64,000 nucleotides of DNA from the NCBI GenBank assembly GCA_942492615.1, contig CALOFL010000004.1, positions 4,847-68,846 on the forward strand, written 5' to 3'. The DNA comes from Candidatus Krumholzibacteriia bacterium (lineage in GTDB: Bacteria > Krumholzibacteriota > Krumholzibacteriia > LZORAL124-64-63). This document shows positions 1 to 17,827 of the stretch, in pieces; the first letter of the stretch is position 1; each line of letters starts with the position of its first letter. The translations under genes were made by a program, and so were the position numbers. The notes beneath the pieces were generated by a model. That model was not told where the DNA came from. It saw only the letters and a list, made by a program, of their open reading frames with translations, and ran no database searches.

Positions 1-567
1 TAGCAGGAGATGGAACTTGCTACGTTACCCAGGCTTTTTCGTGGAAAATAGCGAAGTACGATACCGAGGGTCGTTCGCTATTCCAAGAGGAGGTTTATGA
101 TCTTGGAGACAATTGGAATAAGCGTATGCAGTTGCGCGCGGTGTCCAGTTCCTCAGACCAACTGTTCCTAGTTTCTGTGGGGCCATCAGGGTCAGGTGGG
201 TCGGTTGAAGATAAGGCGATATCAGGTACTCTCCAATTGGTTCAGGGTGATCTCGTAAGAGTCCTGATGCGGACCGGTGTGCGGATTTCGATCCGGCCAC
301 AATTGATTTTGAATTTAGAAACATTCGAACTCTGGTCCGCGGTTGGGACATTAATTGGTCTGGTGAATTTGTGTGTGTGGCCCCCGATCGTGATTACTCC
401 TTTTAATAGGCAAGCCGGGAAGTACGGAAATGGAAACTGTCAGCTAGAAGGAATGGGGGGCTTTAAATCCTACGGGCGTCAGAGGCGAGTATTTCGACAA
501 TGAGAAACCCCAGCCTGCAGATCCCCAAGCCATTGTTTCCGTCCGTTGGCTAGGTGAGGACCGCCTG

Positions 568-900
568 ATGGTCCAATTTGAGGATCAATATGGCCGAAAA
601 GCGGCAAACTCAGCAGGGACTTTCGAGATTTTCCTAAGAGATGGAACTAGTTTGGGCGGATTTGAGATCCAGTGCCCGTACGACCCGAATCACGATAAGG
701 TTTTCATAAGGGAATCAACGATCGTGGTTATTCAAGGTGGAGAGGTGATCGCAAGGGCTTTTGTTAGGCAGCTATCCGATAATGATGTCAAGAATGACGA
801 TGAGTTTTCCACCCCTCCTCCCGAAGAAATACGGGTACGGTGCTACAACTTTAATTTTTTGGGTATGCAGCATTCGTTATCCAAGAGCAGTTTCAGATAA
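568..900 (+). CDS. hypothetical protein in low-GC region (no recognisable domain)
   Basis: 110-aa ORF in the low-GC left edge; no motif recognised; weak call. Confidence 0.2.
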   Translation: MVQFEDQYGRKAANSAGTFEIFLRDGTSLGGFEIQCPYDPNHDKVFIRESTIVVIQGGEVIARAFVRQLSDNDVKNDDEFSTPPPEEIRVRCYNFNFLGMQHSLSKSSFR

Positions 901-1012
901 CTGGTGTGATTTTGTGGTGGTTATTAAGGAATTTCTTGAATCCCTCCGTCTAAAAGGCATTGAAGCCCGGCAGTAGGCCAGTTGGATTGTTTGTTTAGAA
1001 GGACGAAGTCAA

Positions 1013-1285
1013 ATGAAGAAGTATGGAATGATCGTTCTTGCTGTTGTAACACTAATATTTACAGTTGCCCCACCCTCCGTTGCTCCGGCTGCTCCAGCTC
1101 CAGGTAGTTGTTTGGCAGCAATTACTTCACATTACAATGCCCAGCGGGATTGGAATGACTGCATGGACTATTGGGCGGGAAATGAATGGGTTCACGCTCA
1201 TGACATGTGCAGTACCTTGGAAACTGCCATGGATGCTGCACTTACTGCAATGATTTCGGCTTGTGACTTGGCGTTCACCCAGTAG
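1013..1285 (+). CDS. small secreted four-cysteine protein, paralog 1 (90 aa)
   Basis: RBS GAAGGA upstream of ATG; N-terminal signal peptide (MKKYGMIVLAVVTLIFTVAPPSVAPAAPAP); mature ~60 aa with 4 Cys at spacings 16/14/17; paralogous to ORF 1910..2221; followed by a strong intrinsic terminator. Confidence 0.55.
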   Translation: MKKYGMIVLAVVTLIFTVAPPSVAPAAPAPGSCLAAITSHYNAQRDWNDCMDYWAGNEWVHAHDMCSTLETAMDAALTAMISACDLAFTQ

Positions 1286-1294
1286 GGATTTTTG

Positions 1295-1327
1295 GGCCGC
1301 CGGATCCTACCGGCGGCCGTCGTTTTC
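1295..1327 (+). terminator. rho-independent terminator (GGCCGCCGG-ATCCTA-CCGGCGGCC + T-run)
   Basis: perfect 9-bp GC stem, 6-nt loop, followed by GTCGTTTT; directly after stop of 1013..1285. Confidence 0.5.
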
Positions 1328-1351
1328 CCATCCAACTATTCCTGACAATCC

Positions 1352-1570
1352 CTAATCGAATGCCGCAGTCACAATCTCCCGCCGCATCTTCGCGATGTTC
1401 TCGATCGGGATCTTCTTCGGACATACCGCCTCACACTCGCCATGGTTCGAGCAGTTGCTAAACCCGTCGTCGCCGTTCCGGGCGACCATCCGCAGGGCCC
1501 GCCGCGTCCGCTCGGGCCCGCCCTGAGGGAGGTAAACGAACTGGCCGACCTTCGCGCTCAGGAACAGCGA
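1352..1570 (-). pseudogene. diverged remnant of succinate dehydrogenase Fe-S subunit (sdhB) 3' end, ~72 codons
   Basis: C-terminal part of ORF 1352..1798 (…[72 protein letters not shown]) aligns at ~70% identity (52/72 by eye) to the C-terminus of intact SdhB at 4674..5432; the remnant is high-GC whereas its flanks are low-GC; the upstream part of the ORF has no Sdh similarity. Confidence 0.55.
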
Positions 1571-1850
1571 ACCCGATGGGTTTGGGTAAGTGAGAAAAGA
1601 TGGGGAGATGGTTACCAGCTCCAAATTCAGGCAACTGCACGATAATAATGGCAAAGAATACGCGAATTTTCTGCACCTCCAAGCTATGAAGTTAGAATTC
1701 GCTGCCGCAATTTGGGCGGCATTGGAAGTTTCGAACTGGAACGGGTAGTGGGTTTGAGTGATAGGATGATTGTTTATGAACCCATCTATTAACTTCAATC
1801 AATTTCGTAAATATTTGGAAAATTCCGACAACACAGATGTTGGCTATATT

Positions 1851-1878
1851 CGTTTAGCCGTGTTCGTTTAGCCGTGTC
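1851..1878. repeat. 14-bp tandem direct repeat (CGTTTAGCCGTGTT / CGTTTAGCCGTGTC)
   Basis: two adjacent near-identical 14-mers ~30 bp upstream of the start of the paralog-2 gene; possible regulator binding site or slippage duplication. Confidence 0.5.
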
Positions 1879-1909
1879 CATTGGGCACTAATCGCGTGGA
1901 GGATATGCT

Positions 1910-2221
1910 GTGAAAAAGCTAGGAATTGTCATTTGCACTGTTGCGCTTGTGGTTGTAGCAGTAGTTTCGCCGTCCGAAGCGCCTGCTGCTCCAGGAGGAG
2001 ACTTAGGTATTAACGGATGTGTAATTGCTGTCTCACAGTATTATGCTGCGTATAGTACATGGAGTAGTTGCATGGCCCAATGGGTTGGTAACGTTCCAGG
2101 GGGGCTTACGGGCCTAACGGCCGAAGATATGTGTTTTGATTTTAGTGAAGCCGCAGATGCAGCTCAAAATTATGCGAGCGGGGTCTGCGGTTGGTATGTT
2201 GATTTCGATCAAATGAACTAG
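1910..2221 (+). CDS. small secreted four-cysteine protein, paralog 2 (103 aa)
   Basis: GTG start 5 nt after GGAGGA; signal peptide MKKLGIVICTVALVVVAVVSPSEAPAAP; 4 Cys with spacings 16/19/17; shared motifs with paralog 1 (W..CM..W.GN, DMC, DAA); followed by an intrinsic terminator. Confidence 0.55.
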   Translation: MKKLGIVICTVALVVVAVVSPSEAPAAPGGDLGINGCVIAVSQYYAAYSTWSSCMAQWVGNVPGGLTGLTAEDMCFDFSEAADAAQNYASGVCGWYVDFDQMN

Positions 2222-2238
2222 TTTTTGGATATACGATA

Positions 2239-2275
2239 CGGCCGCCGGATCCCTCCGGCGGCCGTCCTCATTTCT
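2239..2275 (+). terminator. rho-independent terminator (CGGCCGCCGGA-TCCC-TCCGGCGGCCG + T-rich tail)
   Basis: 11-bp GC stem, 4-nt loop, followed by TCCTCATTTCT; the same stem core as the terminator after paralog 1. Confidence 0.5.
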
Positions 2276-2284
2276 AATCAACTA

Positions 2285-2360
2285 TTGCGAACTGGCACCT
2301 ACTTGAACGCCGCCCGCACGAAATCCCGCCGCTTGCGCGCTAAGTCCTCGACCAAGCTCT
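2285..2360 (-). pseudogene. second, shorter remnant of sdhB 3' end (~20 codons)
   Basis: minus-strand translation …ESLVEDLARKRRDFVRAAFK matches the SdhB C-terminus …[21 protein letters not shown]; DNA core TTGAACGCCGCCCGCACGAAATCCCGCCGCTTGCGCGC vs TTGAACGCCGCCCTGACGAACTCCCGCCGCATGCGCGC in intact sdhB. Confidence 0.35.
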
Positions 2361-2417
2361 CCAGGGACACACCGCCCCGCAACCGCCGCGGTCCGCGTCG
2401 ACATCGATGACTCCAGT

Positions 2418-4589
2418 TCACCGCACCGCCCGACTGACCTCGCGCCCCTCCGGATCCCATCGCACTTCCACACCCCGGGGCCGGCCACCCGACATCTCGC
2501 GGTACAGGCTCGGTTCGCCCCCGGGATGCCATTCCGTCCAGATGCCATCGGACACGGGCTGGCCGCGACTGTCGAGGCGAACCTGCACGATCGTGCTGAT
2601 GGCTCCGGAGGGGTGTTTTTCCACGGTGAATTTGGGTGTTTCAAAAGACGCCGCCGCACCACCCAGCTGGCCGCCGACCCGCGCCAGGAGCTCCTTGGTT
2701 TCCGGATGCCCCGGATCGATGGCGCGGGCTTCGAGCAGGTGGGAATAGGCGGCCGGGCCGTGCCCGCGTGACGCCAGGATCCCGCCCAGGATCCGGTGCG
2801 GTGCGTCGCGCTGTTCTCCCTGCCAGTAGACCGCCGCGAACAGCAGGTGGGCGCAGGCGAGTTCCACCTCCGGCGGTTGCCGGTCCAGGGCCCGCAGGCC
2901 GATCCGCCAGTGCGTGTCGGGCATGCCGGGATTGGCATTCAGGGCCAACCGGAAGTAGCGCTTCTCCTGCTCCAGATCACCGGTGGTCGCATACCAGGTG
3001 GCCAGGATGTTGGCCGCGGTCTTGACCGTCAGCGGATCCTCGTGGGGAAACTCCAGGGCCTGCCGGGCGGGACGAACGGCGTCCTCGGTCTTGCCGGACC
3101 ACGCCAGGACGGCCGCCAGGTTGGCCAGGGACCGCGCGCGCTTGGCGGGATCCAGCCGCTGCTCGATATTCTCGCCGGCCGTCCGCAATTGGTCCGGGGT
3201 CAGGCGGGCTGCGGGCAGCCCCGCGGTCGAAAGGACCGTCTGGGCCAGCTCCAGGGCGAGCAGACCATTGGCGCGGATCGTCGGGTGGACGTGATCGAGA
3301 AAAAATTCCTCGCCGGCGATCGCCGAGCCGAGTTCCTCCCGCGCCTTGTCGGCGATGAGCCGCTCGAAATCCACCACCGGCAGGTTCCGGTCCTGGGCGA
3401 CCGTCTCGATGCCGTTCATCATGACCGGTTGGATCCGCAGCGGACAGACATCCTCTTCGAGGGCCCGGTAGAAAGCCGTCCTGGCTTCCTCCTGGCGGCC
3501 CAGTAGCAGCAGGACCCGACCCCGGCGGTAATGGTGGTCCGCGTTGCGCGGATCCAGCGCCAGGGCGCGGTCCAGGTGCGCCAGCGCCGGCTCCAACTGT
3601 CCGGCTGCCAGGGCATCGGCGGCGGATGCGGCAGCGGCCGCGGACCGCGTCAGATCCTCCGCGGACAAGCCGTCGGTCGGCTGGCTCTTGAAGGGTGAAC
3701 AATCCTTGATGTTGACGGCCGGCTTCACGAGGACCATGGCTGCATCACTGCCGGCGGCCAGCCGGGCCATCCGGTCCAGGCTGATCACGAAATGTTCGCG
3801 GATCTGTGCGGCCAGCTTGTCGTCCCGCTGGTACGCTTCGGGCCCGAAATGCTCCAGCAGGGTATCGGCCTCCTCGGCGAGTTCGGCCTTGTCCGCCGGC
3901 GAACCGGGGGAGGTGATTCCCAGACCGTCGAGCAGGGAGTTCATCAGGGCCCAGGTCCGGGTGCGGGCCAGGAGGCCGGATACGGCCCTGACGAAGGCCG
4001 GTGTCGATTTCAGCGTGCGATAGGTGCGCTCTTCGAGAAACTCGTTCTGTCCGGAATAGACGATGAACAGATCGGGCTCGTAGCGGACGAGCTCTTCCAT
4101 CAGGTGGGCCACCCGGTAGCTCGCGTAGCTGACGGCGCCGACGTTGATGACCTCCCAGTCGGTCCCGGGGGCGGCCAGGGGCAGCAGTTCCCTGAGCCAG
4201 CCGGAGAACGAGCTGTTGTCGTCGAACGGCCGCCCGTAGGTGGTGGAACCCCCGAGGCAGAATATCCGATAGGTATTCGGTCCCTTGCGTGCGGGGAAAC
4301 GCTGGGGATTGAACAGCCGCTTGTTGGGGGCGGTCTCCAGGAACTTCGCGCCGGACGGTGCGGTGGTTTCGACAAAGAGGGGGACATTGCCGGCGAACCC
4401 CACGAAGGGATCGTCCTCGACGAGTACGGGCTCGACGCCTGCGGCCAGAAGGACAAGTTCGAGGAGGCCGAAGAACATCCCGACCATCAGGGCGCTCAGC
4501 AGGATCTTCTTCCACACGGGATGGTCGGGGGCGGGTGCATTCCCGTCCGCGGGCGCGCTGGTGTCAAAAAGAAGGCTCATTCGAAACAC
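2418..4589 (-). CDS. membrane-anchored protein with SGNH/GDSL-like hydrolase region and C-terminal TPR-like repeats (723 aa)
   Basis: N-terminal TM helix (LLSALMVGMFFGLLELVLLAAGV); region reminiscent of SGNH-fold (IVYSGQNEF…); several TPR-like helical repeats (ALALDPRNADHHYRRGRVLLLLGRQEEA…); host-like GC. Confidence 0.5.
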   Translation of the reverse strand: MFRMSLLFDTSAPADGNAPAPDHPVWKKILLSALMVGMFFGLLELVLLAAGVEPVLVEDDPFVGFAGNVPLFVETTAPSGAKFLETAPNKRLFNPQRFPARKGPNTYRIFCLGGSTTYGRPFDDNSSFSGWLRELLPLAAPGTDWEVINVGAVSYASYRVAHLMEELVRYEPDLFIVYSGQNEFLEERTYRTLKSTPAFVRAVSGLLARTRTWALMNSLLDGLGITSPGSPADKAELAEEADTLLEHFGPEAYQRDDKLAAQIREHFVISLDRMARLAAGSDAAMVLVKPAVNIKDCSPFKSQPTDGLSAEDLTRSAAAAASAADALAAGQLEPALAHLDRALALDPRNADHHYRRGRVLLLLGRQEEARTAFYRALEEDVCPLRIQPVMMNGIETVAQDRNLPVVDFERLIADKAREELGSAIAGEEFFLDHVHPTIRANGLLALELAQTVLSTAGLPAARLTPDQLRTAGENIEQRLDPAKRARSLANLAAVLAWSGKTEDAVRPARQALEFPHEDPLTVKTAANILATWYATTGDLEQEKRYFRLALNANPGMPDTHWRIGLRALDRQPPEVELACAHLLFAAVYWQGEQRDAPHRILGGILASRGHGPAAYSHLLEARAIDPGHPETKELLARVGGQLGGAAASFETPKFTVEKHPSGAISTIVQVRLDSRGQPVSDGIWTEWHPGGEPSLYREMSGGRPRGVEVRWDPEGREVSRAVR

Positions 4590-4611: not shown

Positions 4612-4652
4612 GGAAAAGGCGGCAGACTGGAAGGCCAATCCGCCGCTTTTCC
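4612..4652 (-). terminator. candidate intrinsic terminator downstream of sdhB
   Basis: imperfect GC hairpin (GGAAAAGCGGCGG…CTGCCGCCTTTTCC on minus strand) followed by a T-rich run, between the sdhB stop and the start of the 723-aa gene. Confidence 0.35.
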
Positions 4653-4673: not shown

Positions 4674-5432
4674 CTACCCCTTGAACGCCGCCCTGACGAA
4701 CTCCCGCCGCATGCGCGCGATGTTCTCGATGGAGATCTCCTTGGGGCAGACCGCCTCGCATTCGCCGTGGTTCGAGCAGTCGCCGAAACCCTCGTCGTCC
4801 ATCTGCCCCACCATCAGCAGGGCCCGCCGCGTGCGCTCGGGCTCGCCCTGGGGCAGCCAGCTGAACTGGCTGATCTTGGCGCTGACAAACAGCGAGGCCG
4901 AAGCGTTGGGGCAGGCGGCCACGCAGGCGCCGCAGCCGATGCAGGCGGCCGCGTCCATGGCCTTGTCGGCGGCGTGCTTGGGGATCAGCTGATCGTTGCC
5001 GTCGGGCGCCGAACCCACGTTCATGGAGACGAAGCCGCCCTTGTTCTGGATCCGGTCGAAGGCCGAACGGTCGACCACCAGGTCCTGCAGGACGGGGAAG
5101 GGGCCGGCGCGGAACGGCTCGACGGTGATGGTGTCGCCGTCGTTGAAACTGCGCATGCGCACCTCGCAGGTGGTGCAGGCGGCATGCGTGCCGTGGGCGA
5201 CGCCGTTGATGACCAGGCCGCAGGTGCCGCAGATGCCCTCGCGGCAGTCGTTGTCGAACTCGACCGCCTTTTCGCCCTTCTTGACGAGGTCCTCGTTCAG
5301 GACATCGAGCATCTCGAGGAAGGACATCAGGGGCAGCACGTTCTCGACCGTGTAGTCGACGAAACGTCCCTTGTCCTGGCCGCGGTCCTGCCGCCATATC
5401 TTCAGATGAATCGTCATTGTCTTGTCGCTCAT
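4674..5432 (-). CDS. sdhB: succinate dehydrogenase / fumarate reductase iron-sulfur subunit
   Basis: 2Fe-2S and 4Fe-4S Cys clusters ([10 protein letters not shown]; [12 protein letters not shown]; [12 protein letters not shown]); operon position after sdhA. Confidence 0.9.
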
Positions 5433-9091: not shown

Positions 9092-9874
9092 CTACAGAGG
9101 CTGTCCGCACCCGACCAATTCAGTGCCCTCGGCCGCATAGTTGGGGCCGGTGAAGGTCCAGGCGGCGTTGCCCTGGCCGTCGTAGGTGGCGTCCATCCGG
9201 TAGGGGGCCAGGTCGACGAAGGCCGTGCCGCTGGGGCAGCCTTCGGGCTGGATCATCAGGTCCATGCCCCAGGCCATGTGGAATGCGGCCCGTTCGCTCT
9301 GGCTGCCGTTGGACTGGTAGGCCGAGACGTTGGCGTCACCGGTTCCGTCCACGTCGTAGCCGCCGTCCTGGCGGTAGGCGACGAGCATGGTCGTGGCCAT
9401 GTCGAACTCGATGTTGGCCACGACGCCGTCCTCGGCCATGTTCATGGTCATGCCGCTGCCGGCGCGGTATTCCATCTCGGTGGCGCCCACGGACGAGGTC
9501 AGCGGACCTTCGGCGTTGCGGAACTGGATCCAGACCGAAGCCCGGATCTCGCCGGTGGTCGTCGGCGGGTCACCTTCCGAGAGGTCGAGGGTCACATCGT
9601 AGACCCAGGCCATCTGCTGGGGATCCCACTCGGGCTGTTCGCCGGCCTTGGCGAACGTCCCCTGCGTGAAGTCTCCGTCGGAGACGTAGGGGATGTCCGC
9701 GGCCATGGAGTTGATCATATCCAGGGCCTGAACGGCGAATTCTTCGGCCGTTGCCGAATCGACGCTGTTGGTGGTCGTCGGGCTGGCGGGATCATCGCTG
9801 CCGCAGCCGACCAGAGCGAACAGACTGGTGAGCAGCAGGCTCATCAGGACAAATTTGCTGGCATTCCGCATGGT
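9092..9874 (-). other. lipoprotein-like module with its own RBS, ATG, signal peptide and lipobox, in frame with the upstream RND
   Basis: GGAG 8 nt upstream of ATG at 9874; MRNASKFVLMSLLLTSLFALVGCGS lipobox; could be an independent 261-aa gene whose upstream stop was lost. Confidence 0.4.
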
Positions 9875-12800
9875 ATGGGACTCCTCGCTTTGGCCGTCAT
9901 GGCCCACGGACCGGGCGGATTCGTGCCGGAATGCACGCAAGGGCCGGACAATCACTGCCGGACCCTGGTAAGCAAGAAACAGACCTGGCTGAGGAACCGC
10001 TAAGTGGAGCGGGGAGCCTTCCGTCTGTGGCGACAGGACCTCTGTTGACCCGGCCTTGGCAGCGCCGCGCCGGCGGAGCCAGCGGCCCAAGCGGGCCAGG
10101 CCCCAGCCCCAGCGCGTGAACATCCAGTACAGAGCCGGCAGCGCACTGAGGATCAGCACGGTGCTGCTGCCCAGACCGCCGATGGAACTGAGCGCCAGGT
10201 TCTCCCAGATGTCCTTGCCGGCGGTGGCGTCCTTCTTGTAGAGCAGCGGCAGCAGACCGGCGATCGTCGTGCCGCTGGTCAGCAGGATCGAACGCATCTG
10301 GATGCGGGTGCCGTCGATGATCGCCCGGCTGAGAACCTTCTGGCGTATCGCGACCGGCAGGCGCCACAGGTCGAACCCGCCCAGGCGGCGCTTGACGGGG
10401 ATCTGGCCGTCCTGGTCGCCCACGGGGAAGTCGCCCTCCTCGACAATTTCCCGCACCTGGAGCCGGAACCGGTTGATCAGCAGGATGGCGTTGTTGACCA
10501 CGATGCCGAACATCAGGATCAGGCCGATCTTGGCCGACGAGTCGAACTCGCTGCCGGTGGCCCAGAAGATGCCGCCGACCCCGGACAGCGCCATGGGGAT
10601 GGACAGCAGCACGAGCAGGGGCAGGAAAAAGCTTTCGAACATGGCCGCCAGCGCCATGAAGATGAACGCCAGGGTCAGCCACAACGTCTGCTTGAGCTCC
10701 TCTTCCTCCTCTTCGGTGATCTGCTGGCCGCTCATGTCCTCGGCCGTGTAGCCGTACGGCAGCTGGATGCCGGCCATGACGTCCTCGATGTACTGTCGAC
10801 GCATGCGGTCGGTGCCGATGTACTCCCAGTTGATCATCTGGCTGTAGCGCTGATCGTGGCGGTTGATGGAGCTGATCTCCGGCCGGCTCTCGATGCTGAT
10901 CAGCCGCCCGAGCTGCACCTTCTGCCCGCGGGCCGTGGTCATGGTCCGGCCGAGCACCTGGTCGTATTCGATGGACTCGGAGTCGTCGAAGGTCAGCATC
11001 AGCCGCTGGTCTTCGCCTTCGACCACCATGTGCCAGGGGTTTTCGACCCCCAGCAGGCGCCGGATGTGGCCCATGACCTCCATCATGCTCAGGCGGTGCG
11101 ACGCCAGGGCATCGCGGTCCAGGATGATGACGGTCTCATCGGTGGCGTTGCGGCTGAAGCGGTCGCCGCTGGTCAGCCGGGGGTTGCGCACCCGGCGGTT
11201 CCTTTCCAGCCGTTCCAGCGCCCCGTCGGTGATCGCCTTGAGTTCCTTGCTGTTGTAGCCGGTGATGCGGATGGTGGAGTTGCTCATGCCGCCGCCGCGG
11301 CCGCCCTTCATGTAGGGGTCGCCGAAGCCGTTGATCCAGATGAACATGCCGCCGAGCTCCTCGGCCAGCACGATGAACTTGTTGCGGAACATCTCCGGGT
11401 ACGCCGTCTGGAGCAGCTCGTCGTCGAATTCGAGGTTGATCCAGGCGCGATTCTGGTAGGCGCCGCTGCGCATGTGGGCGCCTTCGGGCAGGGGCAGCAC
11501 CTCGGTCTCGAACAGCTTGATGGTCTCGCTCGAGAGCTTGACGTCGGTGCCGACGGGGCGCTCGCAGTAGACGACGATCTGTTCCCTGGACTGCGGCCGC
11601 CAGAAACCGCCCGTGCGGACCTTGTCCTTGAAGACGAAGAAGGTGCCGACGAACAGGCCGACGGTGATCAGAACCGGCAGGTACCAGAAACGCAGGTGCC
11701 CGCGGGTCAGCTGCTGCACGTAGCTGACGAAGATGCCCACGGCCAGCAGCAGGCCGCCGAGGACGCCGATCCAGGGCAGGATCTCCTGGGCGGTGAAGCG
11801 TCCTTTCCAGACCCAGGCCCCGATGAAGGCGATGATCGCCAGCAGCACCACGCCCAGCCCCCAGCGCCAGACCATGGCGAATCCCTGCAGGCCGAACTCG
11901 TCGTCGGCGGCGCGGGTGGTCCGCATCTCCTTTTCGGCCGGACCCTTGAGGGCGACGGGGATCCAGGCGAAGGCGACGAAGATCGAAGCCAGCATGGCGA
12001 TACCGACGCTCACGGCCAGGGGCACGTAGAACAGGCTCAGCCGGTCGGTCATGAAGATGAACGACAGGAACGCCACGACCGTGGTCAGGGTGGTGGCCAT
12101 GATCGGGAAAGCGACCTCGCGGGTGCCCCTGATCAGGGCGCGGCGCGAGTCGCCGCCGTGATTGCCGGACAGCCGGCGGTGGATCGCGTCGAGGACCAGG
12201 ATGCTGTTGTCCAGCAGCATGCCGAAGCAGACGGTCAGCCCGCTGATGGTGATGAAGTTGACCGACACCCCGAAGAAGTAGAACAGCGACAGGCAGATGA
12301 CGATGGCCAGCAGGATGGAGAAGATCACGATGCCCGTCAGCCGGACCTGCTTCAGGGCGATCGCCAGCATGATGAACAGCAGCCCCAGGATCACCAGGGA
12401 ACGGATCACCAGTTCCTCCAGCTTGTCTTCTAGTTCTTCGCCCTCGTCCTGGTCGACCTCGAACGTGACGGCGAAGGGGGCTTCGGCCTGGATCCGGGGC
12501 AGCTCCTCGCGCAGGCGGCGGCTGACGACGATGGAATTCTGCCCGCTGCGTTTGGTGATGTTCAGGGTGATCACGTTCTGGCCGTTGATGCGGCTGAAGT
12601 AGGAGATGTCCTCGAAGTCCTCCTGGATGACGGCGACGTGGCCCAGGGTGATCGGCTGCCCGCCGAGATTGCTGAGCACCGTCTCCTCGAGCATGCGCAG
12701 GGAGACGGAGTCCTGCACGCTGACGGTCAGCTCGCGTCCGCTGCGGCGCACGGCCCCGGCCGGGATGATGTCGTCCAGGGCGTTGATCCGGTTGGCGATC

Positions 12801-13405
12801 CCGTCGGCGGTCAGGCCGTAGCGCTCGATCAGTTCGAGGTCGAGCAGGACCTTGACCAGGGGGCGGGCACCGCCGCGCAGCTCGGCGTCCGCCACGCCGG
12901 GAATGGCCAGAAAGCGCGGCAGCAGCCAGGTCTCGGCCCGGTCGCGCAGGGCGTTCATCGACAGCGGGGAGATCAGGCTGACGGCGAAAAAGTCCTCCGC
13001 GCTGAGCTCTTCGGGAACGTAGGGCCGGATGAACGGCTGGCCCGCCTGGCTGGGCAGGGTGCGCCGGACCGAGCCCAGGCGCTCGGACAGTTCCAGCCTG
13101 GCGAACTCCATGTCGGTGCCGCGCTTGTATTTCACCGTCACGCTGCTCTGTCCGTGGCGCGACTGGGAATCAAGATCCTCGACGCCGTGGCAGCCGGCGA
13201 CCGCTTCCTCGATCGGCAGGGTGATCGAACGCTGGATCGCGCTCGGACTGGCGCCGTTCCAGCTGGTGACGATCGACAGCTCGGGCAGGTCGGTTTCGGG
13301 CATGGCCTCGATGTTCAAGCGCGGCAGGGCGTAGATACCCGTCACGATCAGCGCGGCGAATAGCATCCAGGTGGCGACGGGATGGTCGACGGCAAATTTG
13401 ATCAC
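9092..13405 (-). CDS. RND efflux transporter (HAE family) reading through in frame into a C-terminal lipoprotein-like module
   Basis: GTG start with GGAGG RBS at 13405; RND hallmarks (MIKFAVDHPVATWMLFAALIVTGIYALPRL…, 12 TM organisation); the ORF is 1437 aa because no stop separates it from the downstream module. Confidence 0.8.
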   Translation of the reverse strand: MIKFAVDHPVATWMLFAALIVTGIYALPRLNIEAMPETDLPELSIVTSWNGASPSAIQRSITLPIEEAVAGCHGVEDLDSQSRHGQSSVTVKYKRGTDMEFARLELSERLGSVRRTLPSQAGQPFIRPYVPEELSAEDFFAVSLISPLSMNALRDRAETWLLPRFLAIPGVADAELRGGARPLVKVLLDLELIERYGLTADGIANRINALDDIIPAGAVRRSGRELTVSVQDSVSLRMLEETVLSNLGGQPITLGHVAVIQEDFEDISYFSRINGQNVITLNITKRSGQNSIVVSRRLREELPRIQAEAPFAVTFEVDQDEGEELEDKLEELVIRSLVILGLLFIMLAIALKQVRLTGIVIFSILLAIVICLSLFYFFGVSVNFITISGLTVCFGMLLDNSILVLDAIHRRLSGNHGGDSRRALIRGTREVAFPIMATTLTTVVAFLSFIFMTDRLSLFYVPLAVSVGIAMLASIFVAFAWIPVALKGPAEKEMRTTRAADDEFGLQGFAMVWRWGLGVVLLAIIAFIGAWVWKGRFTAQEILPWIGVLGGLLLAVGIFVSYVQQLTRGHLRFWYLPVLITVGLFVGTFFVFKDKVRTGGFWRPQSREQIVVYCERPVGTDVKLSSETIKLFETEVLPLPEGAHMRSGAYQNRAWINLEFDDELLQTAYPEMFRNKFIVLAEELGGMFIWINGFGDPYMKGGRGGGMSNSTIRITGYNSKELKAITDGALERLERNRRVRNPRLTSGDRFSRNATDETVIILDRDALASHRLSMMEVMGHIRRLLGVENPWHMVVEGEDQRLMLTFDDSESIEYDQVLGRTMTTARGQKVQLGRLISIESRPEISSINRHDQRYSQMINWEYIGTDRMRRQYIEDVMAGIQLPYGYTAEDMSGQQITEEEEEELKQTLWLTLAFIFMALAAMFESFFLPLLVLLSIPMALSGVGGIFWATGSEFDSSAKIGLILMFGIVVNNAILLINRFRLQVREIVEEGDFPVGDQDGQIPVKRRLGGFDLWRLPVAIRQKVLSRAIIDGTRIQMRSILLTSGTTIAGLLPLLYKKDATAGKDIWENLALSSIGGLGSSTVLILSALPALYWMFTRWGWGLARLGRWLRRRGAAKAGSTEVLSPQTEGSPLHLAVPQPGLFLAYQGPAVIVRPLRAFRHESARSVGHDGQSEESHTMRNASKFVLMSLLLTSLFALVGCGSDDPASPTTTNSVDSATAEEFAVQALDMINSMAADIPYVSDGDFTQGTFAKAGEQPEWDPQQMAWVYDVTLDLSEGDPPTTTGEIRASVWIQFRNAEGPLTSSVGATEMEYRAGSGMTMNMAEDGVVANIEFDMATTMLVAYRQDGGYDVDGTGDANVSAYQSNGSQSERAAFHMAWGMDLMIQPEGCPSGTAFVDLAPYRMDATYDGQGNAAWTFTGPNYAAEGTELVGCGQPL

Positions 13406-13418
13406 GAAGGGCGCCTCC

Positions 13419-16400
13419 TCAATAGGCCTTGTCGGTCTTCCGGTGGAGCATCTCGTAGACCACCGGGGTCAGGAACAGGGTAAGAAAAGTCGCGATGCTC
13501 AGCCCGCCGATGATGGCGATGGCCAGCGGCCGCTGCATCTGTTCGCCGGTGCCCAGTCCCAGGCCCATCGGCACCATGGCCAGCACGGTGGTGACCGTGG
13601 TCATCACGATCGGTCGGAAACGCAGCGCGCTGGCTTCCATGATGGCCTCGCGTCCGCTCATGCCGTCGGACCGCAGGCGCCGGATCGTGGCCACCTTGAC
13701 GATGGCGTCGTTCACGGAGATACCCAGCAAGGCGATCATACCGATCAGGGAGATGATGTTGATGCTCTGCCCGGTGATGAACAGGGTGGCCACCGCGCCC
13801 ATGATGCCGACCGGCAGCACGGCCGAGATGATCAACGGATCGAGAAAACTCTCGAACTGGGCGGCCAGGATCATGTAGACCAGCAGGCCCGACAGCAGCA
13901 GCGCCCAGCCGAGATCGCGGAAGCTGCTGTTGATCTCCTCCTGTTCGCCGCCGGTGATGAAGGCCAGGCCTTCGGGCGTCTCGAGGTTGGCTATCAGGTC
14001 GCGCACGTCGTCCCAGACGTCGGCGACGCCGCGGCCGTTGATGTCGCCGCTGATGGAGATCTGGCGGCGCTGGTCGCGGCGCACGATCTCGCGTACGGGC
14101 GTGCCGGAGGTCTGGATGATGAACGAGCCCAGCGGCACCGTCTTGTCCTCGCCGAGGGCGACGGGGGAGGCCAGGACCTTGGCCAGGTCGTAACGCTGCG
14201 TCCGCGGCAGGCGCACGGCGATGTCGATCCGCTGCTCGATTTCGTTGTAGGTCGTGGCCACCGTTCCCTGGATGCGGTTGCGCAGCTCGCGGGCCAGGGC
14301 GTCGGGCTCCAGCCCGTAACGCAGCGCCTTCTCCCGGTCGATGGTGATTTCCACCGTCGGGTTGCCCATCACCCGGTCCATGCCCACGTCCGCCAGGCCC
14401 GGGATCGCCCGCAGCTTCGGCAGGATCGAGTCGGCCATGGCGAAGGCCTCGCTGGGCTTCTCGGCCACGATGCCGAGGGTGAAGGCGGCTTCGCCGCTGG
14501 CGAGGATTTCGCGCAGACCCACGCCTTCCTCGCTGAAGGTGAAGATGGCCCCCTGCCTGTCGGCCAATCGTTCCTGGAGCCGCGCCTTCACCTTGTCCAT
14601 GTCGCTGCGGCCGTGGCGGCTGGGCTTGAGCATCACCCGCGTGCGGGCCGTGTTGGCGGCGCTGTATTCCTTGAGGCTGGCCAGGGTCTTCTCGGTGACG
14701 CCGACCTGGCTGTAGACCGTGGCCACCTCGGGCATCGTCACCAGGTAGCCGGCCAGATCGCCGGCCGCTTCGTAGGTGGATTCCAGGGGCGTGCCGGCCG
14801 GCAGTTCCATCGCCAGCGTGAAATCGCCGCGCGAGCGGTCGGGCATGAACGACAACCGCATCTCCTTGCCCAGAAGGACCGTCGCAACCAGGGCGATCAG
14901 CACGGCGGTCAGGAAGTAGACCTTGTGGTCCATGACCCGGCCGAGCACACCGTGGTAGTGGTTCATGACGGCCTGGAAAGCGTTCTCGAACGGCCGGAAG
15001 ATCAAGCTGGGCCTGTCCTTGGGCGTCTTGAGGATGTGGGCCGACAGCATCGGCTGCAGGAGCAGGGCGGCGAAGATCGACACCATCAGACTGATGGTCA
15101 CGGTCAGGGCCTGGTCGCGGAAGAACTCGCCGGCGATACCCGGCACATAGATGACCGGGAAGAAGACCGCGACGGTCGTCAGGGTCGCCGCGATCACGGG
15201 TGAGGCCACCTCGGACGCCCCGTCGGCGCAGATCTCCGCGATGGGCTGGCCGCTGCCCTTCTTCATCTTCAGGTGGCGGTTGATGTTCTCCAGGACCACG
15301 ATCGAGTTGTCCACGAGCATACCGGCGGCCAGCGACAGGCCGCCCAGCGACATCAGGTTCAGCCCGACGTCGGCGAAGTAGAGAAAGGCGAACGTGGTCA
15401 TGATCGAGACGGGGATGGCCAGACCGACGACCACGGGGCTGCGCCAGTTCATCAGGAACAGGAACAGCACCAGGAAAGCCAGGCCGGCGCCGTACTTCAG
15501 GGAGTCCTCGAGGCCCTTGAAGCTCTCCTCGACGAAATCGGCGTCCTTGTAGATGAACGAGTAGTCGAAGTCGACATACTGTTCGCCGAGAATGCCGAGA
15601 ACCTTGTCGACCTCCGCCGTGGTCGCGATGGTGTTCTCGCCCACCTCCTTGTACAGGTGCAGGGAAACCACCTCTTCGTCGCCGTTCAGGGTAAAGCCCT
15701 CGGGCTCCTTGATGGTGTCGACGACCTGCGCGACGTCATTGATCGTGATGCCCGGCCCGGCGGCGGGGATCTCGGTCTTGCGGATCTCATCGAGGTTTTC
15801 GTATTCGCCGAGGATGCGCAGCGGCAGGTGGAGGGGGCCCTTGCGGATGCGTCCGCCGGGAAAACTGATGTTGGCGACCCGCAGGGCGGTGCTCAGGTCC
15901 TCCATGGTCAGGCCGTAGAGCCGCAGGCGGTTGAAGTCGGGCTGGACGAGGATTTCCCGTTCGGCCCCGCCGATGACTTCGGCCTGGCTGACGCCGTTGA
16001 TCTGCTCGAGCGCCGGCTTGACGACCTCACGGGCGAACTCCGTCATCCGCGCCATCGGATCGTCGCCGTGCAGCACCAGGATCGCGATGGGCCGCGCGCT
16101 CGGATCCCAGCGCAGGATCAGCGGCCGGTCGGCCTCCTCGGGGAAGTCGTCCCGGTAGGCGACCCGGTCGATGGCTTCGCGCAGGTGCAGGTTGGCGAAG
16201 TCCATCTCCGTGCCCCACTCGTACTGGACGGTGATGGTCGACACGCCTTCGCGGGTCTTGGAGATCACGCGCCGCACGCCCGCCAGGCCGGTGATGACCT
16301 CTTCGAGAGGCTGCGTCACCAGGCGGGTCAGGTCGTCGGCCGGGGTGTCGCTGTAGTTCGTGATGACCGTCAGGTTCGGGTAGTTGATCGAGGGCAGCAG

Positions 16401-16502
16401 GTCGACCGGGAGTCGTTGTCGGGCCTGGAACCCGATGAGGACCAGGCCGGCAAACAGCATCAGGATCGCGACGGGGCGTCGGACGGCATTCTGGATGATC
16501 AT
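13419..16502 (-). CDS. RND efflux transporter (HAE/AcrB-like), first of a tandem pair
   Basis: start MIIQNAVRRPVAILM at 16502 overlapping the MFP stop (ATGA); typical RND periplasmic and TM domains; 1027 aa. Confidence 0.85.
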   Translation of the reverse strand: MIIQNAVRRPVAILMLFAGLVLIGFQARQRLPVDLLPSINYPNLTVITNYSDTPADDLTRLVTQPLEEVITGLAGVRRVISKTREGVSTITVQYEWGTEMDFANLHLREAIDRVAYRDDFPEEADRPLILRWDPSARPIAILVLHGDDPMARMTEFAREVVKPALEQINGVSQAEVIGGAEREILVQPDFNRLRLYGLTMEDLSTALRVANISFPGGRIRKGPLHLPLRILGEYENLDEIRKTEIPAAGPGITINDVAQVVDTIKEPEGFTLNGDEEVVSLHLYKEVGENTIATTAEVDKVLGILGEQYVDFDYSFIYKDADFVEESFKGLEDSLKYGAGLAFLVLFLFLMNWRSPVVVGLAIPVSIMTTFAFLYFADVGLNLMSLGGLSLAAGMLVDNSIVVLENINRHLKMKKGSGQPIAEICADGASEVASPVIAATLTTVAVFFPVIYVPGIAGEFFRDQALTVTISLMVSIFAALLLQPMLSAHILKTPKDRPSLIFRPFENAFQAVMNHYHGVLGRVMDHKVYFLTAVLIALVATVLLGKEMRLSFMPDRSRGDFTLAMELPAGTPLESTYEAAGDLAGYLVTMPEVATVYSQVGVTEKTLASLKEYSAANTARTRVMLKPSRHGRSDMDKVKARLQERLADRQGAIFTFSEEGVGLREILASGEAAFTLGIVAEKPSEAFAMADSILPKLRAIPGLADVGMDRVMGNPTVEITIDREKALRYGLEPDALARELRNRIQGTVATTYNEIEQRIDIAVRLPRTQRYDLAKVLASPVALGEDKTVPLGSFIIQTSGTPVREIVRRDQRRQISISGDINGRGVADVWDDVRDLIANLETPEGLAFITGGEQEEINSSFRDLGWALLLSGLLVYMILAAQFESFLDPLIISAVLPVGIMGAVATLFITGQSINIISLIGMIALLGISVNDAIVKVATIRRLRSDGMSGREAIMEASALRFRPIVMTTVTTVLAMVPMGLGLGTGEQMQRPLAIAIIGGLSIATFLTLFLTPVVYEMLHRKTDKAY

Positions 16503-17827
16503 TGGGCCGCGACCTCGCCGAAGGTGGCGAAGTCCCACTTGTCACGCGGCGGGATGGTCTTGCGGACCTTGATCTTGGCCTCGTGCGCCAGGGTCAGGTG
16601 GTCGCTGACGACCACCTGGTCGCCGGCGGCCAGGGAGCCGCCGCTGTGGACCTTGAGGATCTCCACCCAGTCCTCGTTGGCCAGGCCGATGTCCACGTAG
16701 AGCCAGCGCGCCCGGTCGTCCTCCTTCTTGAACACCAGGGGGCGGTTGTCGCGGATCAGCAGGGCTTCCTTGGGCGCCAGCAGCTTGTCGGCAAACACGA
16801 TGCCGGCGATCTCGGCCCGCACGAACATGCCGGGGCGGAAGCGGCCTTCGGGGTTGCTGAAGCGGATCAGCAGCTCGCAGGTGCGCGAGGCCTCGTCCAG
16901 CGAGGCGCTGATGACGTCGACGGCGGCCTCGAGCGTGTCGCCGGTCGCCGGCACCGCCAGGAGCACCGGACGCCCGGGGGCCAGATGACCGAGATCGGCC
17001 TCGAGCACATTGACGACCGCCTCGAGGTTGTCGTTGTTGACGATGGTGCAGAACGAGTTGCCGACGGTGACGATTTCACCGGTGACCATGGCCAGACTCT
17101 GCACGATACCGGCGAAGGGCGCGCGGATCTCGGTGTACTCCAGGTTGAGCTTGGCCCGCTCCTCGGCCATGCGGGCCTCGGCCAGGCCGGTGCGCTGCTG
17201 GAAGACCGCCTCGCGGAAGGCGCCGTCCTGCAAGGCGTCCATCTCCAGCTCGAGCAGGCGGCCCTGGAACTCGTCGCGTGAGAGCGACCCCTTCTTCAGC
17301 ATCTTTTCCAGTTCGCCGCGCTGCGTCGTGAAATCCTTGATCGCCTCGTGGTTCACACTGAAGGTGTCGGTTTCGGCGGCCATCTGGCTGAGCGCTTGCA
17401 GATGGCGGTAGCGGCTCTCCTCGAGCGCGATCTCGTATTCGCGGGGGTCGATGCGCGCCAGCAGCTGATTCCGGCGGACACGGTCGCCGTCACGCACCAG
17501 GACCTCCAGGAGCTCACCGCCGGACTTGGTCTTGATCACCACCGTCTGCGGTGTGCGGATGGCGCCGTCGGCATAGACGGGCAGCACCAGGTTGCCCTGG
17601 CGAATGGCGCCCACGTTGACCCGGATGGACTTCTCCTTGGTCTTGGTTTCCGCGCTGGTGTCGGCCTCGGCGCTGACGCTGTCGCCGGCTGCGGTCGAAT
17701 CCGCCGCGGCACCGTCACCGTCGCCGCCGAAGCAGCCGCCGAGCGATGCTGTCAGCAGGCAGGTCAGCAGCAGGAGAAAGGGAATCGACAGACGTCCACG
17801 AGCGAGCGCAACCAGCCGGTAATGCAT
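16499..17827 (-). CDS. RND efflux membrane fusion protein (periplasmic adaptor), lipoprotein
   Basis: signal peptide plus lipobox (LTASLGGCF); HlyD/MFP-like coiled-coil and beta-barrel regions; directly upstream of the two RND genes. Confidence 0.8.
   Translation of the reverse strand: MHYRLVALARGRLSIPFLLLLTCLLTASLGGCFGGDGDGAAADSTAAGDSVSAEADTSAETKTKEKSIRVNVGAIRQGNLVLPVYADGAIRTPQTVVIKTKSGGELLEVLVRDGDRVRRNQLLARIDPREYEIALEESRYRHLQALSQMAAETDTFSVNHEAIKDFTTQRGELEKMLKKGSLSRDEFQGRLLELEMDALQDGAFREAVFQQRTGLAEARMAEERAKLNLEYTEIRAPFAGIVQSLAMVTGEIVTVGNSFCTIVNNDNLEAVVNVLEADLGHLAPGRPVLLAVPATGDTLEAAVDVISASLDEASRTCELLIRFSNPEGRFRPGMFVRAEIAGIVFADKLLAPKEALLIRDNRPLVFKKEDDRARWLYVDIGLANEDWVEILKVHSGGSLAAGDQVVVSDHLTLAHEAKIKVRKTIPPRDKWDFATFGEVAAQ

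Follow-up and report, generated by a model that had tools for sequence, protein, structure and literature searches.

Overlooked paralogous genes for small, putatively exported four-cysteine proteins beside displaced sdhB ends in a Krumholzibacteriia genome

What do two small genes with four cysteine codons each do at the edge of compositionally foreign DNA in a bacterium from an uncultured phylum, and how did they come to lie next to pieces of sdhB? This question is raised by a 64,000-nucleotide stretch of the genome of a Candidatus Krumholzibacteriia bacterium (assembly GCA_942492615.1, contig CALOFL010000004.1, positions 4,847 to 68,846; hereafter the window), within which an original prediction, made from the sequence alone, had placed a pair of secreted effectors of the bacteriocin, toxin or pheromone kind. 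Our analysis indicates that the two genes, here called P1 and P2, are lineage-restricted paralogs that public annotation overlooked, and that each opens a repeated module ending in a displaced sdhB 3' fragment. The genes and the signals read from the sequence around them are as follows (aa, amino acids; nt, nucleotides).

998..1003, plus strand: Shine-Dalgarno-like GAAGGA, 9 nt 5' of the P1 ATG
1013..1285, plus strand: P1, a 90-aa precursor with an ATG start, consisting of a signal-like N-terminus (residues 1-26) and a 64-aa acidic mature part with four Cys
1849..1876, plus strand: perfect tandem 14-mer, two copies of TTCGTTTAGCCGTG, 34 nt 5' of the P2 start
1898..1903, plus strand: Shine-Dalgarno GGAGGA, 6 nt 5' of the P2 GTG
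1910..2221, plus strand: P2, a 103-aa precursor with a GTG start, consisting of a signal-like N-terminus (residues 1-26) and a 77-aa acidic mature part with four Cys

P1 and P2 are true paralogs. They align by BLASTP at E=5e-14 with 34% identity, and the Smith-Waterman score of their mature parts (92) lies 13 standard deviations above the scores of shuffled sequences (25.5 +/- 5.0), none of 5000 shuffles reaching it. The same register is recovered in an independent DNA-level MAFFT alignment. Over the 90 aligned codons, nucleotide identity at codon positions 1, 2 and 3 is 0.53, 0.62 and 0.32 respectively, different codons are used at 18 of the 33 residues that are identical in the two proteins, and neither protein has lost any of the four Cys, either Trp or the signal peptide. 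Because the first two codon positions are conserved while identity at the third is near random, and because of these synonymous replacements, P1 and P2 are with high probability real protein-coding genes rather than spurious open reading frames (ORFs). The pattern is that of long divergence under protein-level selection, not of duplicated non-coding DNA. The coordinates, the BLASTP alignment and the shuffle test all bear out the two paralogous ORFs of 90 and 103 aa that had been proposed, as does the presence of a ribosome-binding site ahead of each. A third paralog was not found in the window. Accelerated evolution of the two genes was also considered and is unsupported, since identity is 53% in the coding region compared with 61% in the flanks made up of untranslated region (UTR) and sdhB remnant. 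The tandem TTCGTTTAGCCGTG repeat ahead of P2 could, from its sequence, be a regulatory site such as an operator or promoter element; upstream of P1 there is merely a loosely similar GTTTAG, as opposed to the perfect repeat of P2.

The two precursors share a clear architecture. Each begins with MKK, continues with a 12-residue hydrophobic core (mean Kyte-Doolittle hydropathy 3.05 in P1 and 3.27 in P2) and then reads APAAP, in agreement with the signal peptide originally described. In a heuristic check, both N-termini show the features of a Sec signal cut by signal peptidase I (a positive n-region, an h-region of 10-15 residues and small residues at -3 and -1), and on this basis cleavage probably falls between APA and AP. 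A lipoprotein was rejected by the PROSITE PS51257 rule for lipoboxes. The pattern [LVI][ASTVI][GAS]C is lacking directly after the hydrophobic core: C1, the first Cys, is preceded by P-G-S in P1 and I-N-G in P2, these residues come 15-19 positions after the core ends, and P2 has an Asp at -6. The presumed mature proteins are very acidic, with an isoelectric point (pI) of 4.18, a net charge of -7 and a single Lys or Arg in the 64 residues of P1, and a pI of 4.05, a net charge of -8 and no Lys or Arg in the 77 residues of P2. Their four Cys align in the order C-x16-C, then 15 (P1) or 20 (P2) residues, then C-x17-C; the two pair spacings and the common register had been predicted correctly, while the middle gap had been given as 14 or 19 residues. 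A fifth Cys in P2 lies inside the signal peptide. Both Trp are likewise in register, as are three motifs, C-M-x-x-W-x-G-N, D-M-C and D-A-A, which matches the shared motifs noted earlier (CM..W.GN, DMC and D/EAA).

Structure prediction, one of the follow-up steps suggested with the original prediction, was carried out with AlphaFold2 on the two-sequence alignment. The P1 model is a helical hairpin with a mean predicted local distance difference test (pLDDT) score of 85 and helices at residues 5-31, 33-39 and 41-63; the loop between the helices is where P2 has its five additional residues. The midpoints of the Cys pairs C1/C4 and C2/C3 nearly coincide (32.5 and 32.0 in P1, 39.0 and 38.5 in P2). 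Because the pairs are thus symmetric about the turn of an antiparallel hairpin, the model suggests two disulfide staples, C1-C4 and C2-C3. Overall, we are highly confident in this reading at the level of the genes and their structure.

Searches for relatives returned nothing meaningful for either protein in Pfam, NCBIfam, PHROGs, PADLOC or the PDB sequences, consistent with the earlier statement that they belong to no characterised family, and Rfam had no match for the locus. Two word-indexed searches of 5.8 billion protein clusters gave no match at E <= 10, and when 1.84 billion representatives were searched exhaustively with a profile, the sole match was a 474-aa protein with internal repeats and no Cys framework, which we rejected as spurious. 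Translated pattern scans of GTDB genomes, IMG/VR and JGI metagenomes yielded no confirmed relative, these scans requiring near-exact peptide patterns such that relatives at 35% identity would escape. Foldseek searches against PDB and BFVD retrieved only generic hairpins, all at E >= 1. At the DNA level, the island that carries the pair has no blastn match among plasmids and phages, and its ORFs have none among viral contigs. Recurrence beside sdhB had been put forward as a further check; no P-like gene lies 3' of sdhB at any of 14 close sdhB loci. Short P1 tblastn matches just 3' of sdhB in two loci (L009 and L010) cover 8-9 residues in the opposite orientation and were rejected, and an apparent P2 match in L099 overlaps a generic hairpin within unrelated genes. 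The original prediction had held that an absence of conserved homologs would point to spurious ORFs; homologs were found in none of the collections searched, yet the codon-position pattern shows that the ORFs are not spurious.

Public annotation itself seems to have overlooked the pair. A collection of 15 billion proteins includes two neighbouring ORFs (281 aa and 110 aa) from the same 220,710-bp NCBI contig but neither P1 nor P2, probably on account of their atypical composition. The pair was evidently not called as genes, and any relatives in other genomes might be concealed likewise. P1 and P2 are an orphan pair in an uncultured phylum and form a family that is new in sequence and of a structural kind already known.

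The DNA around the pair is foreign in composition. GC content is ~66% over the window and 43-51% from position 1 to ~2280, and GC at third codon positions (GC3) is 0.43 in P1, 0.38 in P2 and 0.49 in orf110, a 110-aa ORF upstream of P1, compared with 0.83-0.96 in host genes. P1 and P2 are therefore cargo of foreign low-GC DNA, and the description of their surroundings as a horizontally acquired-looking island holds. The host SdhB has 84% aa identity to SdhB of metagenome-assembled genomes of Ca. Krumholzibacteriia, by which sequence comparison the host is Krumholzibacteriota-like. The window also encodes two AcrB-type RND pumps and a HlyD-type adaptor, and because such tripartite pumps are present the host is taken to be diderm. 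These genes occupy 9092-17827 on the minus strand, where two consecutive AcrB-family RND genes (ORFs of 1437 and 1039 aa) are followed by the gene for the HlyD-type membrane-fusion protein; the 1437-aa ORF matches AcrB over three stretches, and its call may be over-extended.

The most informative feature of the locus, which the original prediction missed, is that each small gene opens a repeated module made up of the gene, a GC-rich hairpin, a ~40-nt homologous spacer with CAACTATT and a minus-strand sdhB 3' fragment. The parts of the two modules beyond P1 and P2, and the intact gene from which the fragments can be told, are listed here.

1295..1318, plus strand: hairpin 1, GC-rich, 9-bp stem, followed by GTCGTTTTCC; -28.5 kcal/mol, z -4.1
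1352..1586, minus strand: rem1, a displaced sdhB 3' fragment comprising the last 77 codons and the stop, frame intact
2238..2265, plus strand: hairpin 2, GC-rich, 12-bp stem; -32.2 kcal/mol, z -6.1; 92-93% identical to hairpin 1
2299..2400, minus strand: rem2, a second, shorter, frameshifted sdhB 3' fragment within an ORF at 2299..2532, its product ending in RKRRDFVRAAFK before the stop
4674..5432, minus strand: the host's intact sdhB (252 aa), with which the remnants are compared

Each hairpin follows the stop codon of its small gene and has a short T-tract on the plus strand, and hairpin 1 is likely the P1 terminator. The dedicated terminators proposed earlier are thus real as stable hairpins, and at the same time they are part of a duplicated module that runs on into the sdhB 3' fragments. 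We also considered the hairpin as a signature of the element; the 47 metagenome loci that it retrieves match just 24-34 nt of it, as expected of a generic GC-rich hairpin.

The fragment rem1 has 78% nt and 72% aa identity to intact sdhB, a ratio of nonsynonymous to synonymous substitution (dN/dS) of 0.24 and a GC3 of 0.83. The host sdhB is its nearest neighbour (0.77), yet compared with all functional sdhB genes its branch is long: rem1 is 0.69-0.74 identical to the relatives, which over that region are 0.80-0.93 identical to the host gene. rem2 has 82% nt identity to intact sdhB over the last 61 nt. The intact gene has its own, different 3' UTR and hairpin (4620-4650). An assembly chimera formed through sdhB repeats is unlikely, as the remnants are truncated and just 78-82% identical to the intact gene. 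On the minus strand at 1352-1798, a 148-aa ORF joins ~70 residues of low-GC sequence in frame to the 77 C-terminal residues of SdhB, including a CxxxxxCxxxCP cluster motif. This may represent a gene chimera, or simply a frame left open by chance. Between intact sdhB and rem2 lies a gene of host-like GC (2418-4589, minus strand) whose 723-aa product combines an N-terminal transmembrane segment, TPR repeats and a hydrolase domain of split GDSL/SGNH type. The gene has no counterpart 3' of sdhB in 80 related loci, nor in the 14 close ones, and might itself have been inserted.

How could such modules arise? An intact sdhB together with two displaced 3' ends that abut low-GC DNA recalls the arrangement at the e14 prophage, which sits in icd of E. 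coli K-12 with the icdC fragment flanking it (PMC13626634). Because an intact housekeeping gene and displaced, in-frame 3' copies of it under selective constraint adjoin foreign DNA, insertion at the 3' end of the gene with supply of a replacement end is the natural reading, and the modules are probably the footprint of repeated insertion or duplication beside intact sdhB. In this scheme, one or more integrative elements would target the sdhB 3' end, bring a replacement end and displace the old one, and repetition of the event, or duplication, would leave two old modules of small gene, hairpin and sdhB'. For type VI secretion system (T6SS) effector-immunity arrays and Rhs loci, it is documented that insertions follow one another and shift earlier 3' ends outward (PMC5361080). 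The alternative is an in-situ tandem duplication of the small gene-hairpin-sdhB' unit. Since the two units are near saturation except in the hairpin (53% identity in coding sequence, 61% in UTR plus remnant), serial insertion and tandem duplication are inseparable here. An integron cassette, whose attC site has R'' (RYYYAAC) and R' (GTTRRRY) cores and an imperfect stem with extrahelical bases, was rejected: the hairpins are perfect GC stems of 9-12 bp with no GTTRRRY after them, and ATCCAAC occurs in module 1 only, as judged without a dedicated attC model.

For the function of the pair, we favor the following reading. The Sec-type signal would carry a very acidic protein of 7-8 kDa into the oxidising periplasm of a diderm host, where DsbA-type oxidation would lock the antiparallel two-helix hairpin with two disulfides, C1-C4 at its open end and C2-C3 beside the turn. 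The protein would then act as a stable periplasmic binder or neutraliser, in the manner of immunity proteins or inhibitors that mobile elements carry. Residence in the periplasm is suggested by the Sec-type signal, the lack of a visible exporter and the diderm host, and a binding or neutralising role fits better than a membrane-active bacteriocin because the proteins are small, rigid, very acidic, duplicated, diverged and carried on acquired DNA. Taken as a whole (genes, fold, periplasm, mobile cargo and immunity-like binder), we judge this reading to be about evenly balanced between right and wrong. The immunity-like function in particular, for example inhibition of an incoming basic effector or enzyme, is speculative and stands below an even chance.

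Several observations weigh against this reading. The N-terminus could be an uncleaved membrane anchor instead, and the P2 model, which has the same helix order as P1, is of low confidence (pLDDT 51). The disulfide pairing is deduced from topology, and identical residues of P1 and P2 show no significant clustering on one helical face (p = 0.06-0.9), for which reason we make no claim of a conserved core with a variable binding surface. The island continues past the left window edge, with 2.3 kb of it inside the window; within that part, no cognate toxin, T6SS, contact-dependent inhibition (CDI) or colicin gene is visible, positions 1-2400 contain neither an effector linked to the pair nor an integrase or recombinase, and no known immunity family in Pfam, NCBIfam or PADLOC matches. 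An immunity function would survive the missing effector linkage, since orphan immunity genes are known to stand without a linked effector (PMC5361080). Finally, intact sdhB is not adjacent to the modules, and because the 723-aa GDSL/TPR gene separates them a simple e14-like model needs extra events.

How do other explanations compare? That P1 and P2 are bacteriocins or toxins that leave the cell to kill or inhibit competitors, as originally proposed, would account for small size, a secretion signal, a cystine framework and paralogs in horizontally acquired DNA, and toxin families typically hold their Cys scaffold while other residues diverge. Membrane-active bacteriocins are typically cationic, and these proteins, at a net charge of -7 and -8 with at most one basic residue, lack the cationic, amphiphilic character; in a diderm host a Sec-type signal alone would lead to the periplasm and not outside. 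Nor is there a visible outer-membrane export system, ABC/C39 exporter, double-glycine leader or immunity gene, the flanks inside the window holding only orphan ORFs and sdhB fragments, and no Pfam or NCBIfam bacteriocin model matches at E <= 1; that neither an immunity gene nor a dedicated exporter is visible had been observed before. The proposal of a bacteriocin, toxin or pheromone effector thus finds no positive evidence, given the low pI values and the diderm host, and we consider a secreted bacteriocin or toxin unlikely. A signalling peptide or pheromone acting outside the cell would equally be small and exported, and there are two of these proteins; it is the least probable of the readings considered, as no sensor kinase, processing protease or exporter is adjacent, 64-77 folded residues are large for a bacterial pheromone, and the diderm envelope would retain the proteins.

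Of comparably low probability to the bacteriocin is an envelope function for a mobile element or prophage, such as superinfection exclusion, a spanin-like or lysis accessory role, or a transfer-related periplasmic protein. The position of the genes at the edge of low-GC foreign DNA beside att-like sdhB remnants and the shared strand of the four island ORFs speak for it, and i-spanins with helical periplasmic domains and Cys are known; against it, no island ORF resembles a PHROG, phage, plasmid or viral contig, no o-spanin partner, holin, endolysin or integrase is visible, and mature lengths of 64-77 aa are far below known i-spanin size. Decidedly improbable, in our view, is a periplasmic protein that binds a metal such as Cu(I) or acts in redox chemistry, in which C-M...W and D-M-C by the turn would be ligands and no disulfide would form. 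Periplasmic copper proteins such as CusF typically use Met, His, Cys and Trp as ligands, P1 and P2 are acidic, and C-M-x-x-W and D-M-C are invariant in both copies, P1 even having H-A-H-D-M-C; the His residues of P1 are not conserved in P2, however, metal-binding families in Pfam, NCBIfam and the PDB sequences give no match, no cop, cus or czc genes lie beside the pair, and structural staples explain the symmetric Cys positions more simply. Very improbable, too, are spurious ORFs or decaying relics, for which one could cite the lack of homologs, the absence of the pair from the public record where neighbouring ORFs are annotated, and its position among pseudogene fragments. The codon-position contrast and the 18 synonymous replacements described above count against relics, as do the retained Cys, Trp and signal peptide and the intact frames, each with a ribosome-binding site and hairpin. 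Some other function takes up the remaining probability.

The four ORFs of the island (a 281-aa ORF, orf110, P1 and P2) all lie on the plus strand and are all orphans. The first two are as follows.

3..503, plus strand: 3' part (166 codons) of the 281-aa ORF, which enters from beyond the left window edge; low-GC island, orphan
568..900, plus strand (shared with P1 and P2): orf110, an orphan ORF of 110 aa belonging to the low-GC island

The ORF at 3..503 is 100% identical to a 281-aa NCBI protein (P0002) that forms a singleton cluster in the 15-billion-protein collection. Pfam gave no match for it, and by eye it has candidate NHL-like 'G-x-V/C-Y-V/L-x-D/Q' repeats. orf110 is also a singleton in that collection, with no family match in Pfam, NCBIfam, PHROGs or PADLOC. 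Inside the 281-aa ORF, in another frame, a 24-codon mini-ORF at 97-171 on the plus strand (MILETIGISVCSCARCPVPQTNCS) has four Cys and follows a perfect AGGAGG; it is probably a chance occurrence.

These results change no major open question; their value lies in a well-defined, testable orphan family. A bolder proposal, which we think is unlikely to hold in full, is that P1 and P2 are the first bacterial periplasmic counterpart of the CHCH fold ('twin CX16-17C') and fast-diverging, protective (immunity-like) cargo of small sdhB-end cassettes that pile up by displacement. If it is true, cassettes replace the sdhB 3' end and each leaves one orphaned end behind. Should the favoured reading itself be right, the sdhB 3' end would be a hotspot of insertion in which displaced gene ends keep a record of past events, like icd/e14. 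Gene finders would then be overlooking genuine small proteins that are exported and under selection, wherever DNA of foreign composition occurs in uncultured phyla, and a cystine-stapled helical hairpin with unusual CX16-17C spacing would join the envelope protein repertoire of bacteria.

Comparison with known systems places both the locus and the proteins. The locus resembles e14/icd with icdC in E. coli K-12 in having an intact gene of the tricarboxylic acid cycle and a homologous C-terminal fragment bordering foreign DNA; it differs in having two remnants that are 78-82% identical to the intact gene, a host-like 723-aa gene in between and no integrase visible in the part of the island inside the window. 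In the arrays of orphan immunity genes that act in the periplasm and are built by sequential displacement (T6SS, Rhs and CDI; Kirchberger et al. 2017, PMC5361080), small periplasm-targeted proteins are likewise encoded by divergent paralogs in acquired DNA, and successive insertions leave orphaned 3' gene regions. There the fragment comes from an effector, whereas here it comes from the housekeeping gene sdhB, with no effector, T6SS or Rhs gene seen and no homology to any known immunity family.

Among proteins, Sec-dependent class II bacteriocins such as enterocin P and lactococcin 972 share with P1 and P2 a small Sec precursor and a disulfide-containing product, but they are cationic products of monoderm bacteria, and an immunity gene usually lies next to theirs, whereas P1 and P2 have a pI of ~4.1, a diderm host and no such neighbour. 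In architecture, two kinds come nearest, namely cystine-stabilised alpha/alpha hairpins and twin Cx9C CHCH proteins. Cystine-stabilised alpha/alpha hairpins have the helix-loop-helix form with two disulfides, C1-C4 and C2-C3, that is predicted here, and the alpha-hairpinins of plants and the kappa-toxins of scorpions combine a conserved Cys scaffold with variable other residues. Those are eukaryotic, usually basic peptides of 25-40 aa with a CX3C...CX3C pattern, in contrast to the ~17 residues between paired Cys in the bacterial, acidic proteins of 64-77 aa described here. The twin Cx9C CHCH proteins of the mitochondrial intermembrane space differ from P1 and P2 in spacing (two CX9C motifs as opposed to CX16C and CX17C) and in route (Mia40 import as opposed to a bacterial Sec signal), and there is no sequence similarity and no significant structural match, so that the likeness is one of analogy and not of membership. 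Complex I hairpin subunits, which we presume may be of the CHCH type, are among the non-significant Foldseek matches. As an analogy, the CHCH proteins nevertheless offer the features that are proposed for this pair: small, soluble proteins of an oxidising compartment, with antiparallel helices that each carry a CXnC pair, placed symmetrically about the turn and stapled C1-C4 and C2-C3.

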